DNA of 64,000 nt, from sequence record OQ223305.1; one strand, given 5' to 3'. Each line of letters starts with the position of its first letter. The stretch's first letter is position 1. This DNA comes from Escherichia phage EO1. Positions 11,061 through 54,269 of the stretch are shown here, piece by piece. Under the pieces are notes generated by a model that saw only the letters and a list, made by a program, of their open reading frames with translations, made no database searches and had not been told where the DNA came from. The position numbers and the translations under genes were made by a program.

Positions 11061-11078
11061 AGGGACCCGAAGGTCCCT
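11061..11078 (-). terminator. Terminator hairpin after gene 23
   Basis: gggacc-cgaa-ggtccc stem followed by U-rich tract on the minus-strand transcript. Confidence 0.55.
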
Positions 11079-11092
11079 TAAATCGTCAAAGA

Positions 11093-12658
11093 TTAGATAC
11101 CTTTAACATATACACGGCGGAAGTAAGCGTTTTTACCAAGGCTATTCAGAATAGAAGGCATACCGCTCTGGATGCGAGAAGCCGGAGCCTGAGCAGCGGA
11201 TTCTGCAAATGGGTTGATACCGATACCGTAACGAGTTTTGAATCCCATTACTGGTTGGAAGTTCTTCGGATCGGAACCACGCAGCGGAGTCAGAGCTACA
11301 TATGGAGCATAGTAAATACCAGCATCCATTTCGTTCGGACCTTTATAACCTACAGTGAAATAATCCTGTTTAGCATACTGGTCGATATATACACGGTATT
11401 TACCACCCAGAACACCAGCAAATACTGACTTGGTAGTATCAGTGTTAAAGCCTGTAGCCAGACCCTGTGCAGCATAAGAAATGCCAGTATCAACTGAAGC
11501 CAGAACGTTAACTACGTTACGGGAAGCGATAATGAAGTTACCTTCACCACGACCGGTCTGACGAGCAATTTCAACTGCTTCTTTGTCAATCTGGAACAAC
11601 AGAGCTTTAAAGGATTCACCCGCCCAGCGAGCACCACGAATATCAATCGGATCCTGGAAGTCAAATACACCAGCTTTAGAACCCGGAGTTAGGGTCATAC
11701 CAGATTTACCAACCTGAGCTGAGTAGTTAATCCAATCAACAACTTCACGGTTGATTTCCAGCATGATTTCGGTAGCCAGAATACCAGACAGTTCAGCATC
11801 AGCATCCATACCGTGAACAGCGCGGAGGTCTTGTGCTAATTCGATAGAGTAAGCAGCTTTCAGCTGACGAGATTTAGCTTCGATAACTTGTTTATCGATA
11901 CGGAAGCCCATTTCATTCCATGGGTTATCGGTAGAACCGTTGAAACCTTCCTGAAGTTCAGCGATAGAAGTAGCCATACCTTCAGCGATTTCTACCAGTA
12001 CACCAGCTTCCATTTGTTTCTTAATTTCAGCATCTAATTTAGCTGCATCAGTTGCGCTTGCACTAATTGTTACTTGAGCAGAAGCCTGCAGATACACAGT
12101 ACCAGTGTCCTGGAAGAAGTGAGTATAGATATCACCTACTGTGGTTTCTGTGCTAGCAGCCAGAGCCGGGAATTTCTTAGCAGCACCCTGGCCAGAGAAC
12201 ATTGCATCTGGACCATACATTGGGTGGAATGCTTCTTTAGCACCGGAAGCGATTGGGTCTTTACCATATACTGCACGCAGTGCGAATACCTGGCCAGTCG
12301 GGCTGTTCATCGGCTGAACACCACAAATATCGAAAGCAATCAGGTTAGGAATAGCACGACGTACCATACCCATAACAGCTGGGCCAATCTGAGTTACTGC
12401 GCCAGAAGTCTGACCAGCAGCGATGTTAGTAGCATTGTAACCGTGGTCACCACCGATTTCAGCTTCTGTTAAGAAAGAACCGAACGCCTGAGCGATTTTT
12501 TCGTCTTTGTACTCTGGAGCTGTCTGGAAATCTTTTTCCTGGTTTTCAAAGATTTTAGCGATAATCGCTTGTTTGCTATTAGCAATTTCCGGTAAACCTT
12601 CACCTTCCAGTAATGGCTTCCATTTGTTCAAAAGTTCAGCTTTAGTTTTGATAGTCAT
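11093..12658 (-). CDS. 23: Major capsid protein gp23
   Basis: 521 aa, T4 gp23 length, synteny. Confidence 0.95.
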   Translation of the reverse strand: MTIKTKAELLNKWKPLLEGEGLPEIANSKQAIIAKIFENQEKDFQTAPEYKDEKIAQAFGSFLTEAEIGGDHGYNATNIAAGQTSGAVTQIGPAVMGMVRRAIPNLIAFDICGVQPMNSPTGQVFALRAVYGKDPIASGAKEAFHPMYGPDAMFSGQGAAKKFPALAASTETTVGDIYTHFFQDTGTVYLQASAQVTISASATDAAKLDAEIKKQMEAGVLVEIAEGMATSIAELQEGFNGSTDNPWNEMGFRIDKQVIEAKSRQLKAAYSIELAQDLRAVHGMDADAELSGILATEIMLEINREVVDWINYSAQVGKSGMTLTPGSKAGVFDFQDPIDIRGARWAGESFKALLFQIDKEAVEIARQTGRGEGNFIIASRNVVNVLASVDTGISYAAQGLATGFNTDTTKSVFAGVLGGKYRVYIDQYAKQDYFTVGYKGPNEMDAGIYYAPYVALTPLRGSDPKNFQPVMGFKTRYGIGINPFAESAAQAPASRIQSGMPSILNSLGKNAYFRRVYVKGI

Positions 12659-25471: not shown

Positions 25472-27022
25472 TTAGTAATGAATTTTAATAATATAGTTTA
25501 ATGATATATTCCATGGTCTAGTTTCATAACCAATTAATCCTTCACGATTAAGTGTACCAAGGGCATCTCTCGGTCCACCCAATTCAAATCCATCATTAGT
25601 GAAGTATGAAGCATTATCCCAGTCGGCATATTTTCTAGTTCCAAGATATCCTTGATAAACGGACGCACCAAATGGAGCTTCATGTCTTTGGTATTCTCCC
25701 CAACCACCAGCATGTTTATGGTATGACATTTGTTGTGCCTGAACGCCACCAACATGCATTCCGTCGCATCCTACACCAAGTCTATCCTTCCCATAGCCAT
25801 CTTGTCCTCGTTGATTTAAAATATGACCGCCCGTGCCAGCTCCTCTGACGAAAAGACCTCTCATATCAGGAATGCCAGGGTTATTCCAATCACCACCAAA
25901 TCTTGTTCCAACTGTGTTTCTATAATCAGGATATTGATCTCCTGACACTGTTCCACCATGGCACATAATCCAACCCGGAGGTGCTGAATCTCCCGCAAAC
26001 ATCATAATAGTTCCAACTGGAACCCTTTCTGACGCATATCTTTCAGTGGCAACAGGTTGATCGCCATTTTTCCACATTCCGCCGCGCGACCAAATTCCGT
26101 TTGCTGTAAGATGGTCTAAATTTAAAGAACCATTAATAGTTTGTCCACCACGAGTATTAATTACATCTGCGTTCCATGCTAATGCACCAGAGCTATCACC
26201 TTCAGGGGCAATACCGGCTTGCGTCGTTAATTTTACCACCCCACGCATAGAACCAGTAGCTCCTCGACCATTTAGTGTTTCACCTGTTACTGCAACATCT
26301 CCTAAATTACTGTTAATTTCCGATTGTGTTCCTAAACGTATAACACCCTTATATTCTTGTGTTGCAACAGAATTCATAAAGGTATACGGAGAAATTGCAT
26401 ATCCTTCGCGGAGAGTTCCTTGACGAGTTTGCGCAACAGTAGATAATTGAACTACACCTCTCACAGATTCTGATGCAGTATCTTCGGAAGGAGCTATTTG
26501 TGAAATTAATTTTATTGCAAGTTTTTGCGTTTTTAATGGAGTCATTGCCGTAGTATCATCAACTCCAGCTAAAGCTGCAGGTGTAGATGATATTTTAATA
26601 ACCCCATTTGATGACTCAGACGAATATCTATTTTGGAACACATCGTCAGTATGGTATTTCAGTTTTTGCGGCGTTATTGATGAATTATTATCTGAGCCTT
26701 CTAATGTTTCTTCATTTGTTGAATAGCGCGTTAAACCATACTTAGTTTCAGTAGCATTTGGATACAATAATCTTGTTGCTAATGTAGCTGGTGTAACGAT
26801 TTTAGAATTATTAGTTCCATCTAAAACCTCTTGCTCTGACGCAATCATTGCTATTCCTTTAACTTCCATAGTTGCATCAGGAATACCATTTACGCCGATA
26901 TTACTTATTTTTGATAATGCAGACTGCACTGTCGTGACAGTGTCAGGAAAATTCGATCCTACTGGATCGAATTTAACATATTTTGATTCATTTGATACGT
27001 GCTGATATGTATTGTTACTCAT
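25472..27022 (-). CDS. 12: Short tail fiber gp12
   Basis: 516 aa, synteny between wac and gene 11. Confidence 0.85.
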
Positions 27023-44408: not shown

Positions 44409-44481
44409 TGGGAATTAGCCAAGTTGGTAAGGCACTGGATTTTGATTCCAGGATGCAAAGGTTCGAGTCCTTTATTCCCAG
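44409..44481 (+). tRNA. tRNA-Gln (anticodon TTG)
   Basis: Cloverleaf: acceptor tgggaat/attccca, anticodon loop tTTTGAt, T-arm GGTTCGAGTCC. Confidence 0.85.
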
Positions 44482-44482
44482 C

Positions 44483-44569
44483 GCGAGAATGGTCAAATTG
44501 GTAAAGGCACAGCACTTAAAATGCTGCGGAATGATTTCCTTGTGGGTTCGAGTCCCACTTCTCGCACCA
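44483..44569 (+). tRNA. tRNA-Leu (anticodon TAA), type II with CCA encoded
   Basis: acceptor gcgagaa/ttctcgc, loop cTTAAAa, long variable arm, GGTTCGAGTCC. Confidence 0.85.
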
Positions 44570-44574
44570 AATTT

Positions 44575-44648
<74 letters not shown>

Positions 44649-44694
44649 ATTTATGACTCGTCGTGAGACGCTCAGTTCTTTATTAGGGACTGAT

Positions 44695-45303
44695 ATGCAT
44701 TTTTATCTTTATAAAATAACAAATAAAATTAATAATAAAGTTTATATTGGTGTGCATTCTACCGAAAATTTAGATGATGGATATATGGGTTCTGGCAAAT
44801 TATTAAAAAGAGCCCAAGACAAGTATGGTATAGAAAATTTCTCTAAAGAAATATTAGAGTATTTTGATGATAAAGAATCTATGCTTGAAGCCGAGAAAAA
44901 TATTGTCACAGAAGAGTTTTTAAATAGACCAGACGTGTATAATTTAAAACTTGGCGGTGAAGGTGGATGGGACCATATAAATAATTATCCTATGACAGAT
45001 CAGCAACGTGAATTAATTTCATTGGGTGTTAAAAAGGCGCATTCTAACGGAAAATTAAAAGGATGGTCTTCAAATGGATTAATGAAGAATGGCTTTGCTG
45101 GTAAAACTCATTCTCAAGAAGCTAAACGTAAAATAGCAAAAGCAAACGAAGCAAAAGTTTCTGCGGATGAAAGAAAAAGAAGAATAGAAATTTCTAAATT
45201 ATATGATTTTTCTAAGCGTGGTGAATTATCTAAATATGCTAAGCATATTGGCGTAAGTCATACTCAAGCAAAAAGAATTCTAAATCAAATTAACAATATA
45301 TAA
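44695..45303 (+). mobile_element. segB: GIY-YIG homing endonuclease SegB inserted in the tRNA cluster
   Basis: ORF 44653-45303; GIY-YIG motif YLYKITNKINNKVYIGVHS...GYMGSG; start likely the second Met (MHFYLYK). Confidence 0.75.
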
Positions 45304-45308
45304 TATTT

Positions 45309-45398
45309 GGAGGCGTGGCAGAGTGGTTTAATGCACCGGTCTTGAAAACCGGCAGTCGCTCCGGCGACTCATAGGTTCAAATCCTATCGCCTCCGCCA
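45309..45398 (+). tRNA. tRNA-Ser (anticodon TGA), type II
   Basis: acceptor ggaggcg/cgcctcc, loop cTTGAAa, long variable arm, GGTTCAAATCC. Confidence 0.85.
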
Positions 45399-45403
45399 GT
45401 TTT

Positions 45404-45479
45404 GCTGATTTAGCTCAGTAGGTAGAGCAACTCACTTGTAATGAGAATGTCGGCGGTTCGATTCCGTCAATCAGCACCA
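45404..45479 (+). tRNA. tRNA-Thr (anticodon TGT)
   Basis: acceptor gctgatt/aatcagc, loop cTTGTAa, GGTTCGATTCC. Confidence 0.85.
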
Positions 45480-45480
45480 A

Positions 45481-45555
45481 GGCCCTGTAGCTGGAAGGTT
45501 CAAGCAAGCGACTCATAATCGCCAGATGGTGGTTCAATTCCACCCAGGGCCACCA
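45481..45555 (+). tRNA. tRNA with CAT anticodon (Ile2/lysidine-type or Met)
   Basis: acceptor ggccctg/cagggcc, loop cTCATAa, T-arm GGTTCAATTCC; the T4 counterpart is the AUA-reading tRNA-Ile. Confidence 0.75.
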
Positions 45556-45568
45556 AATTAAGAATTAA

Positions 45569-45655
45569 GGGGAGTTATCCCGTAGAGGTAGCGGTGTGGA
45601 CTGTAAATCCATTGTCATTGCGACTCGGGTGGTTCGACTCCATCACTCCCCACCA
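45569..45655 (+). tRNA. tRNA-Tyr (anticodon GTA), type II
   Basis: acceptor ggggagt/actcccc, loop cTGTAAa, long variable arm, GGTTCGACTCC. Confidence 0.75.
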
Positions 45656-45659
45656 ATTT

Positions 45660-45734
45660 GGATGTGTAGCTCAATGGCAGAGCGATCGCCTGTTAAGCGA
45701 TTGGTTATAGGTTCGAATCCTATCACGTCCGCCA
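45660..45734 (+). tRNA. tRNA-Asn (anticodon GTT)
   Basis: acceptor ggatgtg/cacgtcc, loop cTGTTAa, GGTTCGAATCC. Confidence 0.8.
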
Positions 45735-45848
45735 AATTTGTGACAACTGTCACATTAATATCTACTTGACGCGATTATAGGGGTTGAACTGATCACTCTT
45801 CTCTTAATTTCGTGTGAAGACATCTTGATTGTTGGAGTAGGTATTAAT
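45735..45848 (+). other. AT-rich 114-nt spacer inside the tRNA array with a short hairpin (gtgac-aact-gtcac); possible small stable RNA or internal promoter
   Basis: No tRNA fold and no ORF; occupies the position where T4 carries small stable RNAs within its tRNA cluster. Confidence 0.25.
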
Positions 45849-45924
45849 GTGGCCGTAGTTCAGTTGGTAGAACTCGAGATTGTGATTCTCGTAGTCATGG
45901 GTTCGACCCCCATCGGTCACCCCA
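45849..45924 (+). tRNA. tRNA-His (anticodon GTG)
   Basis: acceptor gtggccg/cggtcac, loop tTGTGAt, GGTTCGACCCC; no encoded G-1. Confidence 0.75.
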
Positions 45925-45928
45925 ATTA

Positions 45929-46004
45929 CGGGGCATAGCTCAGAAGGAAGAGCAAGGACCTTCTAAGTCCTAGGTCGTAGGTTCGATCCCTACTGCCTCG
46001 ACCA
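45929..46004 (+). tRNA. tRNA-Arg (anticodon TCT)
   Basis: acceptor cggggca/tgcctcg, loop cTTCTAa, GGTTCGATCCC. Confidence 0.85.
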
Positions 46005-52554: not shown

Positions 52555-53094
52555 ATGAGAACATTTTTAACTGGTCCTTATCTATCCCTGATGAATGCTT
52601 TTACACACCATTCTGATGCTAGAGTAGAAGAAATTTGTAAAAACGATTATATCCCACCATTTGAAGACTTACTCAAGCAGTATTGCACACTTCGATTAGA
52701 TGGTGGCAGACAATCCGGTAAATCAACTGCTGTGACTAACTTTGCTGCTAATTGGCTGTATGATGGTGGAACAGTTATTGTTCTTTCTAATACTTCAGCT
52801 TACGCTAAAATTTCTGCAGGCCACATTAAAAAAGAATTTTCTCGTTATTCTGGCGATGATATTCGATTCCGCTTATTTACCGATTCTGTCCGTAGTTTTA
52901 TCGGTAATAAAGGAAGCAAGTTCAGAGGTTTATCGCTTTCACGAATTTTGTATATAATTGATGAGCCTGTTAAAGCTCCTGATATGGATAAAATTTACGA
53001 TATTCATATTGAAACTGTACATTACTGTTGCAATAGTAAATGCTGCATTGGTGGTATTACTCGTCCACAGTTTTTCATAATCGGAATGCAATGA
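52555..53094 (+). CDS. Small P-loop NTPase-like protein
   Basis: Walker A-like GGRQSGKST and Walker B-like ILYIIDEP; ORF 52507-53094, start tentatively Met at 52555. Confidence 0.45.
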   Translation: MRTFLTGPYLSLMNAFTHHSDARVEEICKNDYIPPFEDLLKQYCTLRLDGGRQSGKSTAVTNFAANWLYDGGTVIVLSNTSAYAKISAGHIKKEFSRYSGDDIRFRLFTDSVRSFIGNKGSKFRGLSLSRILYIIDEPVKAPDMDKIYDIHIETVHYCCNSKCCIGGITRPQFFIIGMQ

Positions 53095-53420
53095 TGACAG
53101 ACACACAGCTTTTCGAATATCTTTATTTTTCGCCAAAAACTATTAAAAATAAATTGGTGAATCATTTTGAAATTTTGGCAAATAATAACGTCTTGAGCGA
53201 ATTTTATCCTAAGCAATACAAATTACAAAAAGGCGTATTCAAAGGATGCAGAGTTTTGTGCACTGCTCCTAATGCAAGATTAATGAATAAAATTCCATAT
53301 TTTACCATGGAATTTATTGATGGACCTTTTAAAGGACTAATCACCCAAAGTTTAATGGCATATGATTCTGAGCCATTTTTAATTAAAGAACAGTCTTGGA
53401 TAAATTTATTTTCTAATTGA
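53091..53420 (+). CDS. Hypothetical protein
   Basis: ORF 53040-53420 trimmed to ATGATG at the upstream stop; 109 aa. Confidence 0.45.
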   Translation: MMTDTQLFEYLYFSPKTIKNKLVNHFEILANNNVLSEFYPKQYKLQKGVFKGCRVLCTAPNARLMNKIPYFTMEFIDGPFKGLITQSLMAYDSEPFLIKEQSWINLFSN

Positions 53421-53426
53421 GGTTAT

Positions 53427-53789
53427 ATGAAAGCATATCAAATTCTTGAAGGCACACATAAAGGTACTATTTATTTTGAAGATGGTATTCAAGCACGAAT
53501 TATTGTCTCCAAAACCTTTAAAGAGGACTCTTTTGTAGACCCAGAAATTTTCTACGGTTTGCATGCCCGTGAAATTGAAATTGAGCAACAGCCTACAGTT
53601 AAAATTGAAGGTGGTCAACACCTGAACGTTAACGTTCTGCGTCGTGAAACTCTGGAAGATGCAGTTAAGCATCCGGAAAAATATCCGCAGCTGACCATCC
53701 GTGTATCCGGTTATGCAGTTCGCTTTAACTCTCTGACTCCGGAACAGCAGCGCGACGTTATCGCTCGTACCTTTACCGAGAGTCTGTAA
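53427..53789 (+). CDS. Autonomous glycyl radical cofactor (GrcA/YfiD-like; counterpart of T4 Y06I)
   Basis: C-terminal 60-odd residues ...[61 protein letters not shown] carry the glycyl radical motif RVSGY and match E. coli GrcA from memory. Confidence 0.8.
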
Positions 53790-54010
53790 TGGCAAAGATA
53801 ATTATTGAAGGTTCTAAAGATGTGCTAAATGCTTTCGCCGAGTGGTTTAGTAATTCAGGCGAACAGCAATTTAATGAAGCATGGAATATGGGTGATATTG
53901 ATGGAATTTATCCTACGACAGAAATTTCTGCTCAGGGATATGGCATTCATGAACCTATTCGTTTAGTTGAATATGATTTAGGTACTGGTGAGGAAGTAAA
54001 ATATGATTGA
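53789..54010 (+). CDS. Hypothetical protein
   Basis: 73 aa ORF, ATGG overlap with upstream stop. Confidence 0.45.
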   Translation: MAKIIIEGSKDVLNAFAEWFSNSGEQQFNEAWNMGDIDGIYPTTEISAQGYGIHEPIRLVEYDLGTGEEVKYD

Positions 54011-54269
54011 AGATATTAAGGGTTATAAGCCACATACTGAAGAGAAAATCGGTAAAGTGAATGCTATCAAAGATGCTGAAGTTCGTTTAGGACTTATCTT
54101 TGATGCTTTATATGATGAATTCTGGGAAGCACTAGATAATTGTGAAGACTGTGAATTCGCAAAGAATTATGCTGAAAGTCTTGATCAGTTAACTATTGCT
54201 AAAACGAAACTCAAAGAAGCCAGTATGTGGGCTTGTCGTGCTGTGTTCCAACCAGAGGAAAAATATTAA
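54003..54269 (+). CDS. Hypothetical protein
   Basis: 88 aa ORF. Confidence 0.45.

Follow-up and report, generated by a model that had tools for sequence, protein, structure and literature searches.

A host-identical tract in the phage glycyl radical cofactor gene vs.6: probable recurrent gene conversion by chromosomal grcA

Phages of the T4 group degrade the DNA of their host, and the general view is that they have essentially no sequence in common with its chromosome. The gene vs.6 of Escherichia phage EO1 (record OQ223305.1, of which we analysed one stretch of 64,000 nucleotides (nt), referred to as the window) raises the question of how a functional gene of such a phage has come to contain some 170-180 bases of perfect host identity, and of why the host allele concerned varies between phage genera and even among coliphages. 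The gene encodes a phage homologue of the autonomous glycyl radical cofactor GrcA, known as Y06I in T4. From sequence comparisons we consider it probable that the glycyl-radical module of this phage gene undergoes recurrent gene conversion by the host gene. The parts of the gene on which the argument turns are the following (GC3, G+C content at third codon positions).

53427..53789, + strand: vs.6/Y06I, phage autonomous glycyl radical cofactor (GrcA homologue); open reading frame (ORF) of 120 amino acids with ATG start and TAA stop
53427..53603, + strand: codons 1-59, phage-type, AT-rich, diverged GrcA N-terminal domain; GC3 0.24, match to the host N-domain profile
53605..53776, + strand: host-derived, probable conversion tract encoding the glycyl-radical module; 172 consecutive bases equal to E. 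coli (K-12-type) grcA
53700..53714, + strand: RVSGY motif (residues 92-96 of the translation); the Gly95 codon, 53709-53711, is the predicted glycyl radical site
53777..53789, + strand: last 13 nt of vs.6 (ACC GAG AGT CTG TAA), the 3′ edge of the patch; 3 synonymous differences from E. coli

Host origin of the 3′ half of vs.6

The base composition of vs.6 changes within the ORF, with the G+C content rising from 0.348 in ORF nt 1-178 to 0.492 in nt 179-363 and GC3 from 0.24 to 0.44. Windows of 185 nt that are equally GC-rich make up 0.9% of the 64 kb, and a GC step as large is found at 1.1% of positions. Codon use differs between the two parts as well, the 3′ half using CTG (6/6), CCG (3/3) and CGT/CGC (6/6) and the 5′ half CTT/TTG, CCA/CCT and CGA/CGT. 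A first-pass annotation of this DNA had described the 3′ half as GC-richer and rich in CTG, CGT and CCG codons, which these values confirm, and had placed a break inside the ORF at about 53590; the compositional breakpoint is there, but its position is 53604/53605.

Downstream of this breakpoint, vs.6 is nearly identical to a host gene. Using BLASTN against complete genomes, we found ORF nt 179-363 (185 nt) to be 98.4% identical to grcA in 5,426 of 5,426 E. coli genomes, in agreement with the nucleotide match to be expected from the first reading. Pairwise alignment resolves this match into 172 identical bases in a row (53605-53776), followed by the 3 synonymous differences within the final 13 nt, and 5′ of 53605 the nucleotide identity to E. 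coli grcA falls to about 50-55%. Over the 186-nt module the phage and E. coli grcA differ at 4 positions, compared with 14 between E. coli and Citrobacter amalonaticus grcA, 29 for Salmonella enterica, 25-28 for two Klebsiella species and 26 for Raoultella. Judged by these distances, the donor of the tract is E. coli grcA specifically. The genes pflB and tdcE were also considered as donors and rejected, with grcA being the best match in every E. coli genome; of the earlier proposal that the module had been captured from host grcA or pflB, the origin from host grcA thus stands and pflB as a source does not. Furthermore, with the entire 64 kb as megablast query, the 5,426 E. coli genomes returned this tract as the only part matching every genome, the other matches being tRNA-like (transfer RNA-like) at about 90% identity, and there was no match to E. 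coli genomes anywhere in positions 1-40000 of the window.

We examined protein constraint as a cause of this nucleotide identity, given that the C-terminal 61 residues are almost invariant across phage and host homologues. Three IMG/VR phages (L094-L096) encode a C-terminal peptide identical to that of E. coli, yet they have 32 of 62 codons in common with E. coli, against 58 of 61 for the phage of the window (binomial P about 1e-13). Since the identical peptide can be encoded with only about half of the codons in common, protein constraint is rejected as the cause.

Concerning the direction of transfer, E. coli grcA is syntenic with that of other enterics (ung-grcA-eamB) and compositionally uniform (GC3 0.42 and 0.43 in its two halves), and the synonymous divergence of enterobacterial grcA between hosts is about equal in both halves of the gene. 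These three properties identify the host as the donor, and on this sequence evidence the transfer went from host to phage. The reverse, a transfer from phage to host, would be at odds with each of them, and nothing specific speaks for it beyond the exchange of cyanophage psbA reported in both directions (PMC1484495). An assembly or contamination artefact would have to account for a tract that is in frame and has an unchanged junction in phage genomes sequenced independently of one another, several hundred in number, with T4, T2 and RB69 among them. We regard reverse transfer or an artefact as extremely improbable.

High G+C content alone is no sign of host origin in this genome, because other GC-rich patches (G+C up to 0.53), at 11062-12544 and 25653-26123, have no match in E. 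coli genomes. The former lies within a 521-amino-acid ORF on the minus strand (11093-12658), which has the size of the T4 major capsid protein gp23 (gene 23), and the latter within a 516-amino-acid ORF (25472-27022), presumably the gp12 short tail fibre gene. The GC-rich windows also include a tRNA cluster at 44409-46004 with 10 tRNA genes (Gln, Leu, Gly, Ser, Thr, Met-CAT, Tyr, Asn, His and Arg), of which the tRNA-Tyr region has megablast matches of about 90% to some E. coli plasmid records. T4 itself has 8 tRNA genes, in a partly different set. Set against T4 as generally described, this suggests that the tRNA repertoire of the phage has been expanded or altered.

The 5′ half and the edges of the tract

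The first-pass annotation had read the gene as a fusion of a glycyl-radical module with a phage N-terminal domain. On this reading, the 3′ end of host grcA (or pflB) would have been captured once, in an illegitimate event, and its joining to an unrelated phage domain would have created a new chimeric gene. Both the sharp break in composition and identity at 53604/53605 and the absence of any NCBIfam family matching the 59-residue N-half searched alone are as such a fusion would have them. The N-half is nevertheless recognizable as GrcA. From 67 distinct host GrcA N-domains we built a profile, which matches the N-half with 16.1 bits (E 4.8e-7 for one sequence), placing profile positions 27-66 on residues 21-59, and the N-domains of the phages form a graded series against this profile, from 133 bits down to 16 bits. 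Consistent with this, the alignments of the GrcA family TIGR04365 (NCBIfam; residues 20-120, 154.9 bits) and of E. coli GrcA in PDB 6OWR (residues 22-120, E 9e-42) run through residue 59 to the end of the protein, and only the first 20 or so residues of the vs.6 protein are not alignable with GrcA.

Full-length phage homologues lacking the host-identical 3′ half also exist. By tblastn, the gene is present in 1,588 phage records, comprising Tequatrovirus, Mosigvirus, Jiaodavirus, CC31-like, Slopek/Pseudoteven-like and T5-like phages, Aeromonas and Vibrio phages and jumbo Yersinia phages. Nearly all of these homologues share the two-part, full-length architecture, and most are only 70-84% identical at best to any of 80 host grcA modules. 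A 19-kb contig filed as viral (L111, IMGVR_UViG_2706794630_000006) stands apart with a fully host-type grcA, whose N-domain scores 133 bits against the host profile and whose module has 91% identity to Yersinia artesiana grcA. The contig has probably been misclassified or stems from a prophage, with this part being host DNA or a region next to it.

The 3′ edge of the tract points the same way. The terminal GAG and AGT codons, which differ from E. coli, are those of the unconverted relatives L094, L096, L099 and L100, and the tract is therefore flanked by phage-type sequence on both sides, which a captured 3′ end does not explain. Furthermore, pflB is a worse match than grcA even in a phage of a different genus, the module of the Klebsiella phage JD18 having 83% identity with pflB and 87% with grcA of E. 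coli, and 95% with grcA of K. pneumoniae. Collectively, these comparisons leave a capture and fusion very improbable, and the N-terminal half is a diverged GrcA domain instead of the separate phage domain first proposed. The tract is most likely a gene-conversion patch inside an old phage-resident homologue of grcA.

Recurrence of host-type tracts in other phages

If conversion recurs, the tract is expected to differ in history from the remainder of the gene. We compared the window with the RB69-type phages (RB69, L087 and L088) and found nucleotide identities of 0.65 in vs.7, 0.90 in the 5′ half of vs.6, 0.988-1.000 in the tract, 0.85 in the last 13 nt, 0.72 in vs.5 and 0.68 in vs.4. With L088, there is no mismatch at all from 53597 to 53776, and the flanks differ by 10-35%. 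When T4-type phages are set against RB69-type phages, synonymous divergence (pS, Nei-Gojobori) reaches 0.33 for the 5′ half but 0.04-0.07 for the tract (Fisher p 0.0009 and 0.003), with at most 3 synonymous differences seen in the tract where 15 are expected (Poisson P 1.8e-4). Pairs within a genus (window with L085, window with L086, JD18 with Merci) have equal synonymous divergence in both halves, so the tract is not simply evolving more slowly. The block of low divergence between T4-type and RB69-type phages ends at most 8 nt from the E. coli homology on the 5′ side and exactly at its end on the 3′ side. Moreover, RB69 has been reported to be unable to recombine with T4 or other RB phages (PMC6024577). 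This report, together with the coincidence of the block edges with the E. coli homology, disfavours a spread of the tract from phage to phage.

Among coliphages, the tract also follows variation within E. coli. Internal differences from the K-12-type allele number 0 in T4, L084, L088 and OES_C-2, 6 in IME537 and 9 in Killian, with the 5′ halves differing from the window at only 4-7 positions. For the Killian tract, 82 E. coli records are closer matches than all others, and the one of these that we inspected is the O157:H7 strain TR01, whose grcA represents a minority allele in E. coli and differs from the K-12-type allele at exactly 3 positions of the module (A27, A108 and T159). Killian and IME537 carry all three TR01-type variants, and the window, T4 and RB69 carry the K-12-type states (chance roughly estimated at 6e-7); with these three single-nucleotide polymorphisms (SNPs) shared, the phage tracts follow polymorphisms segregating within E. 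coli. By pairwise comparison, patch and remainder are phylogenetically incongruent: in the 5′ half the window lies close to Killian and distant from RB69, and in the tract it is RB69 that is close and Killian that is distant. The 3′ edge varies as well, reading GAG AGT CTG in the window, GAA AGT TTG in T4 and GAG AGC CTG in OES_C-2.

A second host species is represented in the Klebsiella phages of the genus Jiaodavirus (JD18, RCIP0102, Merci and KPV15). Their vs.6 has a phage-type 5′ half with 72% nucleotide identity to the window, a GC3 that rises from 0.25 to 0.60 between the 5′ and the 3′ half, and a module encoding the Klebsiella-type LLDAVEH variant. For comparison we took K. pneumoniae grcA from PLSDB, in which a chromosome of this species is listed among the plasmids, the species not being among the 80 GTDB grcA loci returned. 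The Jiaodavirus modules differ from it at 8-12 positions in the first 175 nt, compared with 22 between E. coli and K. pneumoniae, and K. pneumoniae grcA has matches at 95% identity or more in 108 phage records, typically at 97-98% across module nt 4-171. The closest case, KPV15, differs at 1 of 158 nt, with an identical run of 140 nt, and then turns to Jiaodavirus-specific sequence about 25 nt before the stop codon, which puts this 3′ junction at a position other than that of the T4-type junction. On the sequence evidence, at least three separate events are thus required, from a K-12-type E. coli allele, an O157-type E. coli allele and K. pneumoniae.

Some records used here have peculiarities of their own. 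The PLSDB entry (L167, CP125156.1) is a 5.37-Mb K. pneumoniae chromosome filed as 'plasmid unnamed2', and in K. aerogenes NCTC10006 (L168, LR134122.1) a homopolymer indel that looks like a long-read error shifts the frame of grcA. In KPV15 (L108; KY000080 / NC_055715), the vs.6 gene, at about 1500-1860 of the locus, has a 1-nt deletion in its 5′ half relative to JD18 (GAAACCTTTT to GAAACTTTT), which cuts the reading frame to 49 amino acids upstream of the nearly perfect K. pneumoniae-type tract; this frameshift is either a sequencing error or the mark of a recent pseudogene.

These observations bear on two further explanations. After one conversion in a single ancestral T-even phage, recombination between co-infecting phages could have carried the tract into other lineages, the host contributing nothing more. 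T-even genomes are mosaics, and the 5′ junction (grcA nt 200) is identical in all the E. coli-type phages listed, both T4-type and RB69-type, out of about 620 records at or above 95% identity, as such a history would predict. It leaves unexplained the K. pneumoniae-type tract of Jiaodavirus with its other 3′ junction and the three O157-type SNPs of Killian and IME537; exchanges between phages should also spill into the flanks, and the low-divergence block shared by T4-type and RB69-type phages stops within 8 nt of the end of the E. coli homology on the 5′ side and exactly at its end on the 3′ side, and RB69 is reported not to recombine with T4 or the other RB phages. We consider this history unlikely. 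Alternatively, a single ancient acquisition could have been kept host-like, with no later recombination, by selection on the protein, on codon usage or on features of the messenger RNA, in keeping with the near-invariant C-terminal 61 residues and with the CTG, CGT and CCG codons that had been noted as host-like. Selection of this kind cannot match the synonymous sites of a Klebsiella phage to K. pneumoniae and those of a coliphage to E. coli. Moreover, lineages with the identical peptide share about half of their codons with E. coli, in pairs within a genus synonymous changes accrue equally fast in tract and 5′ half, and 6-9 substitutions lie inside the tracts of Killian and IME537, which together make this explanation highly implausible.

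Accordingly, recurrent conversion remains the explanation that we favour, and it would proceed as follows. An old phage-resident grcA would have diverged in its N-half and taken on the base composition of the phage, and its C-terminal module (ORF nt 179 to about 350) would have been overwritten by chromosomal grcA through phage homologous recombination during infection, in the manner of marker rescue. The hard edges of the patch, which extends from the first base of the module to a few bases before the stop codon, are explained if the conserved module is the only usable homology between phage and host. Once in place, a host-identical tract would offer about 170-180 nt of perfect homology and make further conversion easy, so that the tract would stay in step with the allele of whichever species or strain serves as host; neutral changes within the tract would be erased and those at its very edges would persist. 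The outcome would be concerted evolution between a gene of a lytic phage and a gene of its host. In a stronger form, the module would be in continuous and fairly fast concerted evolution with the grcA of the cell in which the phage replicates, by marker rescue in ordinary lytic infections, for which we see the chances as evenly balanced.

Several points weigh against recurrent conversion or restrict it. Conversion is lineage-specific and not general: no phage tracks Salmonella grcA (none in the phage collection exceeds 90% identity to it), and the Enterobacter-associated CC31-type phages (L089-L093) are at most 81% identical to every host of the panel, Enterobacter included. For Killian and IME537, no exact donor of the tract was found among E. 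coli alleles, from the best of which they differ at 3-6 further internal positions, G6, C111 and A147 among them (8 mismatches for Killian, 95.6% over the aligned 183 nt). The identical 5′ junction is equally compatible with one founding event followed by spread, the account of the junction as a limit of homology being an argument. Base-by-base comparison covered only about 20 phage genes, and the pS tests draw on few sites and on pairs that are not independent. The TIGR04365 score lies below the curated equivalog cut-off of 170, a shortfall due to the diverged N-half. Finally, the machinery and the rate of recombination between T4-like phages and chromosomal grcA, like the benefit to the phage, are what we infer from sequence patterns.

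As to the reach of the phenomenon, the modules of CC31-type, Slopek/Pseudoteven-type (L094-L100) and T5-like phages are at most 84% identical to any host in the 80-species panel and show no recent conversion. Isolation host and tract do not always agree. The Salmonella phage PSE-D1 (ON550260; H205/H250) has a K. pneumoniae-type tract (97.1%). E. coli-type tracts are carried by the Proteus phage Isf-Pm2 (H137; 96.8% to E. coli grcA), by the Yersinia phage PST (H44), whose protein is 100% identical to that of the window, by the Hafnia phage IsaacDaniel (H225), only 87.4% identical to K. pneumoniae grcA, as coliphages are, and by Citrobacter isolates. The tract may reflect the evolutionary host better than the host of isolation.

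If recurrent conversion is true, strictly lytic phages recombine with host chromosomes in nature, and vs.6 offers a clean and tractable case of natural host-to-phage gene conversion in the best-studied phage-host pair, for a process argued until now mainly for cyanophage psbA. An auxiliary metabolic gene would be kept matched to its host partners (PflA and PflB) without selection on each mutation, and the tract would serve as a small sequence marker of the recent host of a phage, useful for assigning hosts to therapeutic or metagenomic T4-like phages. Should conversion be continuous, the tract would be a record of the recent natural host species of a T-even phage, even of the host allele, and a natural reporter with which to measure recombination between lytic phages and host chromosomes.

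Locus, product and known systems

The window is a segment of a Tequatrovirus (T4-like) genome, in which positions 53000-54200 match Escherichia phage PE37 at 98.6% identity and the remaining top-ranking T4-type phages at 97-98%. The gene order at the locus is ipII/ipIII - vs.8 - vs.7 - vs.6 - vs.5 - vs.4 (acb2) - regB, with the following features next to vs.6.

53419..53422, + strand: GAGG, putative ribosome-binding site 4 nt 5′ of the vs.6 ATG, overlapping the TGA stop of the upstream vs.7-homologue ORF
53789-54010, + strand: vs.5 homologue ORF, whose ATG overlaps the vs.6 TAA
54003-54269: vs.4 homologue, two genes 3′ of vs.6, annotated in related phages as anti-CBASS protein 2 (Acb2)

After vs.4 come regB and a vs.1 homologue with a transglycosylase-like (SLT) annotation, and the early-gene cluster of the GrcA gene thus also contains counter-defence functions. 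A scan for promoters and terminators around vs.6 gave nothing exceeding shuffled expectation.

Related phages annotate the gene as vs.6/GrcA, and NCBI names the RefSeq phage proteins GrcA. The Pfam domain Gly_radical (PF01228) matches residues 60-101 (E 2.5e-18), and the 6OWR alignment pairs phage residue n with GrcA residue n+7, so that Gly95 corresponds to Gly102 of GrcA. As the first-pass annotation had stated, the translation matches the C-terminus of E. coli GrcA, RVSGY included: 60 of the 61 C-terminal residues are identical, the exception being V67 of GrcA, which is I60 in the phage. Its assignment of the gene as a homologue of T4 Y06I was likewise correct, with 99.2% protein identity. 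With its own ribosome-binding site and ATG and separate ORFs on either side, vs.6 encodes a small stand-alone protein and not the C-terminus of a full-length glycyl radical enzyme.

In the passage of PMC8683613 that cites Wagner et al. 2001, T4 Y06I, like E. coli YfiD, is stated to restore the activity of oxygen-cleaved pyruvate formate-lyase. With 99% protein identity to Y06I, the vs.6 protein of this phage would be expected to do the same. Host PflA would install the glycyl radical on Gly95, and the activated protein would dock on PflB that oxygen has cleaved at its own radical glycine, replacing the lost C-terminal fragment and restoring activity. The benefit to the phage might be a sustained fermentative supply of acetyl coenzyme A and adenosine triphosphate in the infected cell under microaerobic conditions. 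Neither the gene nor its biochemical role is new, and the value of the case lies in evolution and recombination. Our literature search found no paper linking grcA or vs.6 with host-phage recombination, recurrent conversion included, although an earlier mention is possible; in Nolan et al. 2006, only the Gly_radical domain is noted.

As a protein, vs.6 resembles E. coli GrcA (YfiD) and T4 Y06I (TIGR04365/IPR011140), members of a family of small proteins of about 14 kDa that act as a 'spare part' of pyruvate formate-lyase, in being stand-alone, with a C-terminal glycyl-radical module and RVSGY. It is 7 residues shorter than E. coli GrcA, to which its N-terminal 59 or so residues are weakly similar (16 bits), and it is encoded in the early-gene cluster of a lytic phage (vs.8-vs.7-vs.6-vs.5-acb2-regB), whereas the host gene lies between ung and eamB.

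As a recombination event, the proposed conversion resembles marker rescue in T4. Marker rescue and plasmid-phage recombination in T4 use the UvsX/UvsY/gp32 and gp46/47 pathway, and cytosine-containing DNA in the infected cell with tens to hundreds of base pairs (bp) of phage homology can be copied into progeny genomes. About 50 bp of homology suffices for T4 recombination, and the vs.6 tract of 172-178 nt is longer than this requirement. Marker rescue is a laboratory procedure with cloned T4 fragments, whereas the donor for vs.6 would be a native chromosomal gene and the outcome is seen in natural phages.

The closest parallel is found in marine phages. Intragenic host-phage recombination in cyanophage photosynthesis genes was reportedly described by Zeidner et al. 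in 2005. For cyanophage psbA and psbD, it has been seen as %G+C patchiness and in recombination tests (Sullivan et al. 2006, PMC1484495). In both systems an auxiliary metabolic gene of T4-like phages is mosaic with the host copy, and the cyanophage genes cluster by host. The vs.6 tract differs in that its donor is resolved to species and allele, with perfect-identity runs of 140-178 nt, and in that the patch is always the same functional module, with hard edges at the limit of homology and a clear host-to-phage direction. It also differs in belonging to the model pair of T4 with E. coli or Klebsiella, in which it can be tested directly. Taken together, vs.6 is a further example of psbA-type recombination in a different gene and phage group, for which the evidence is unusually clean.

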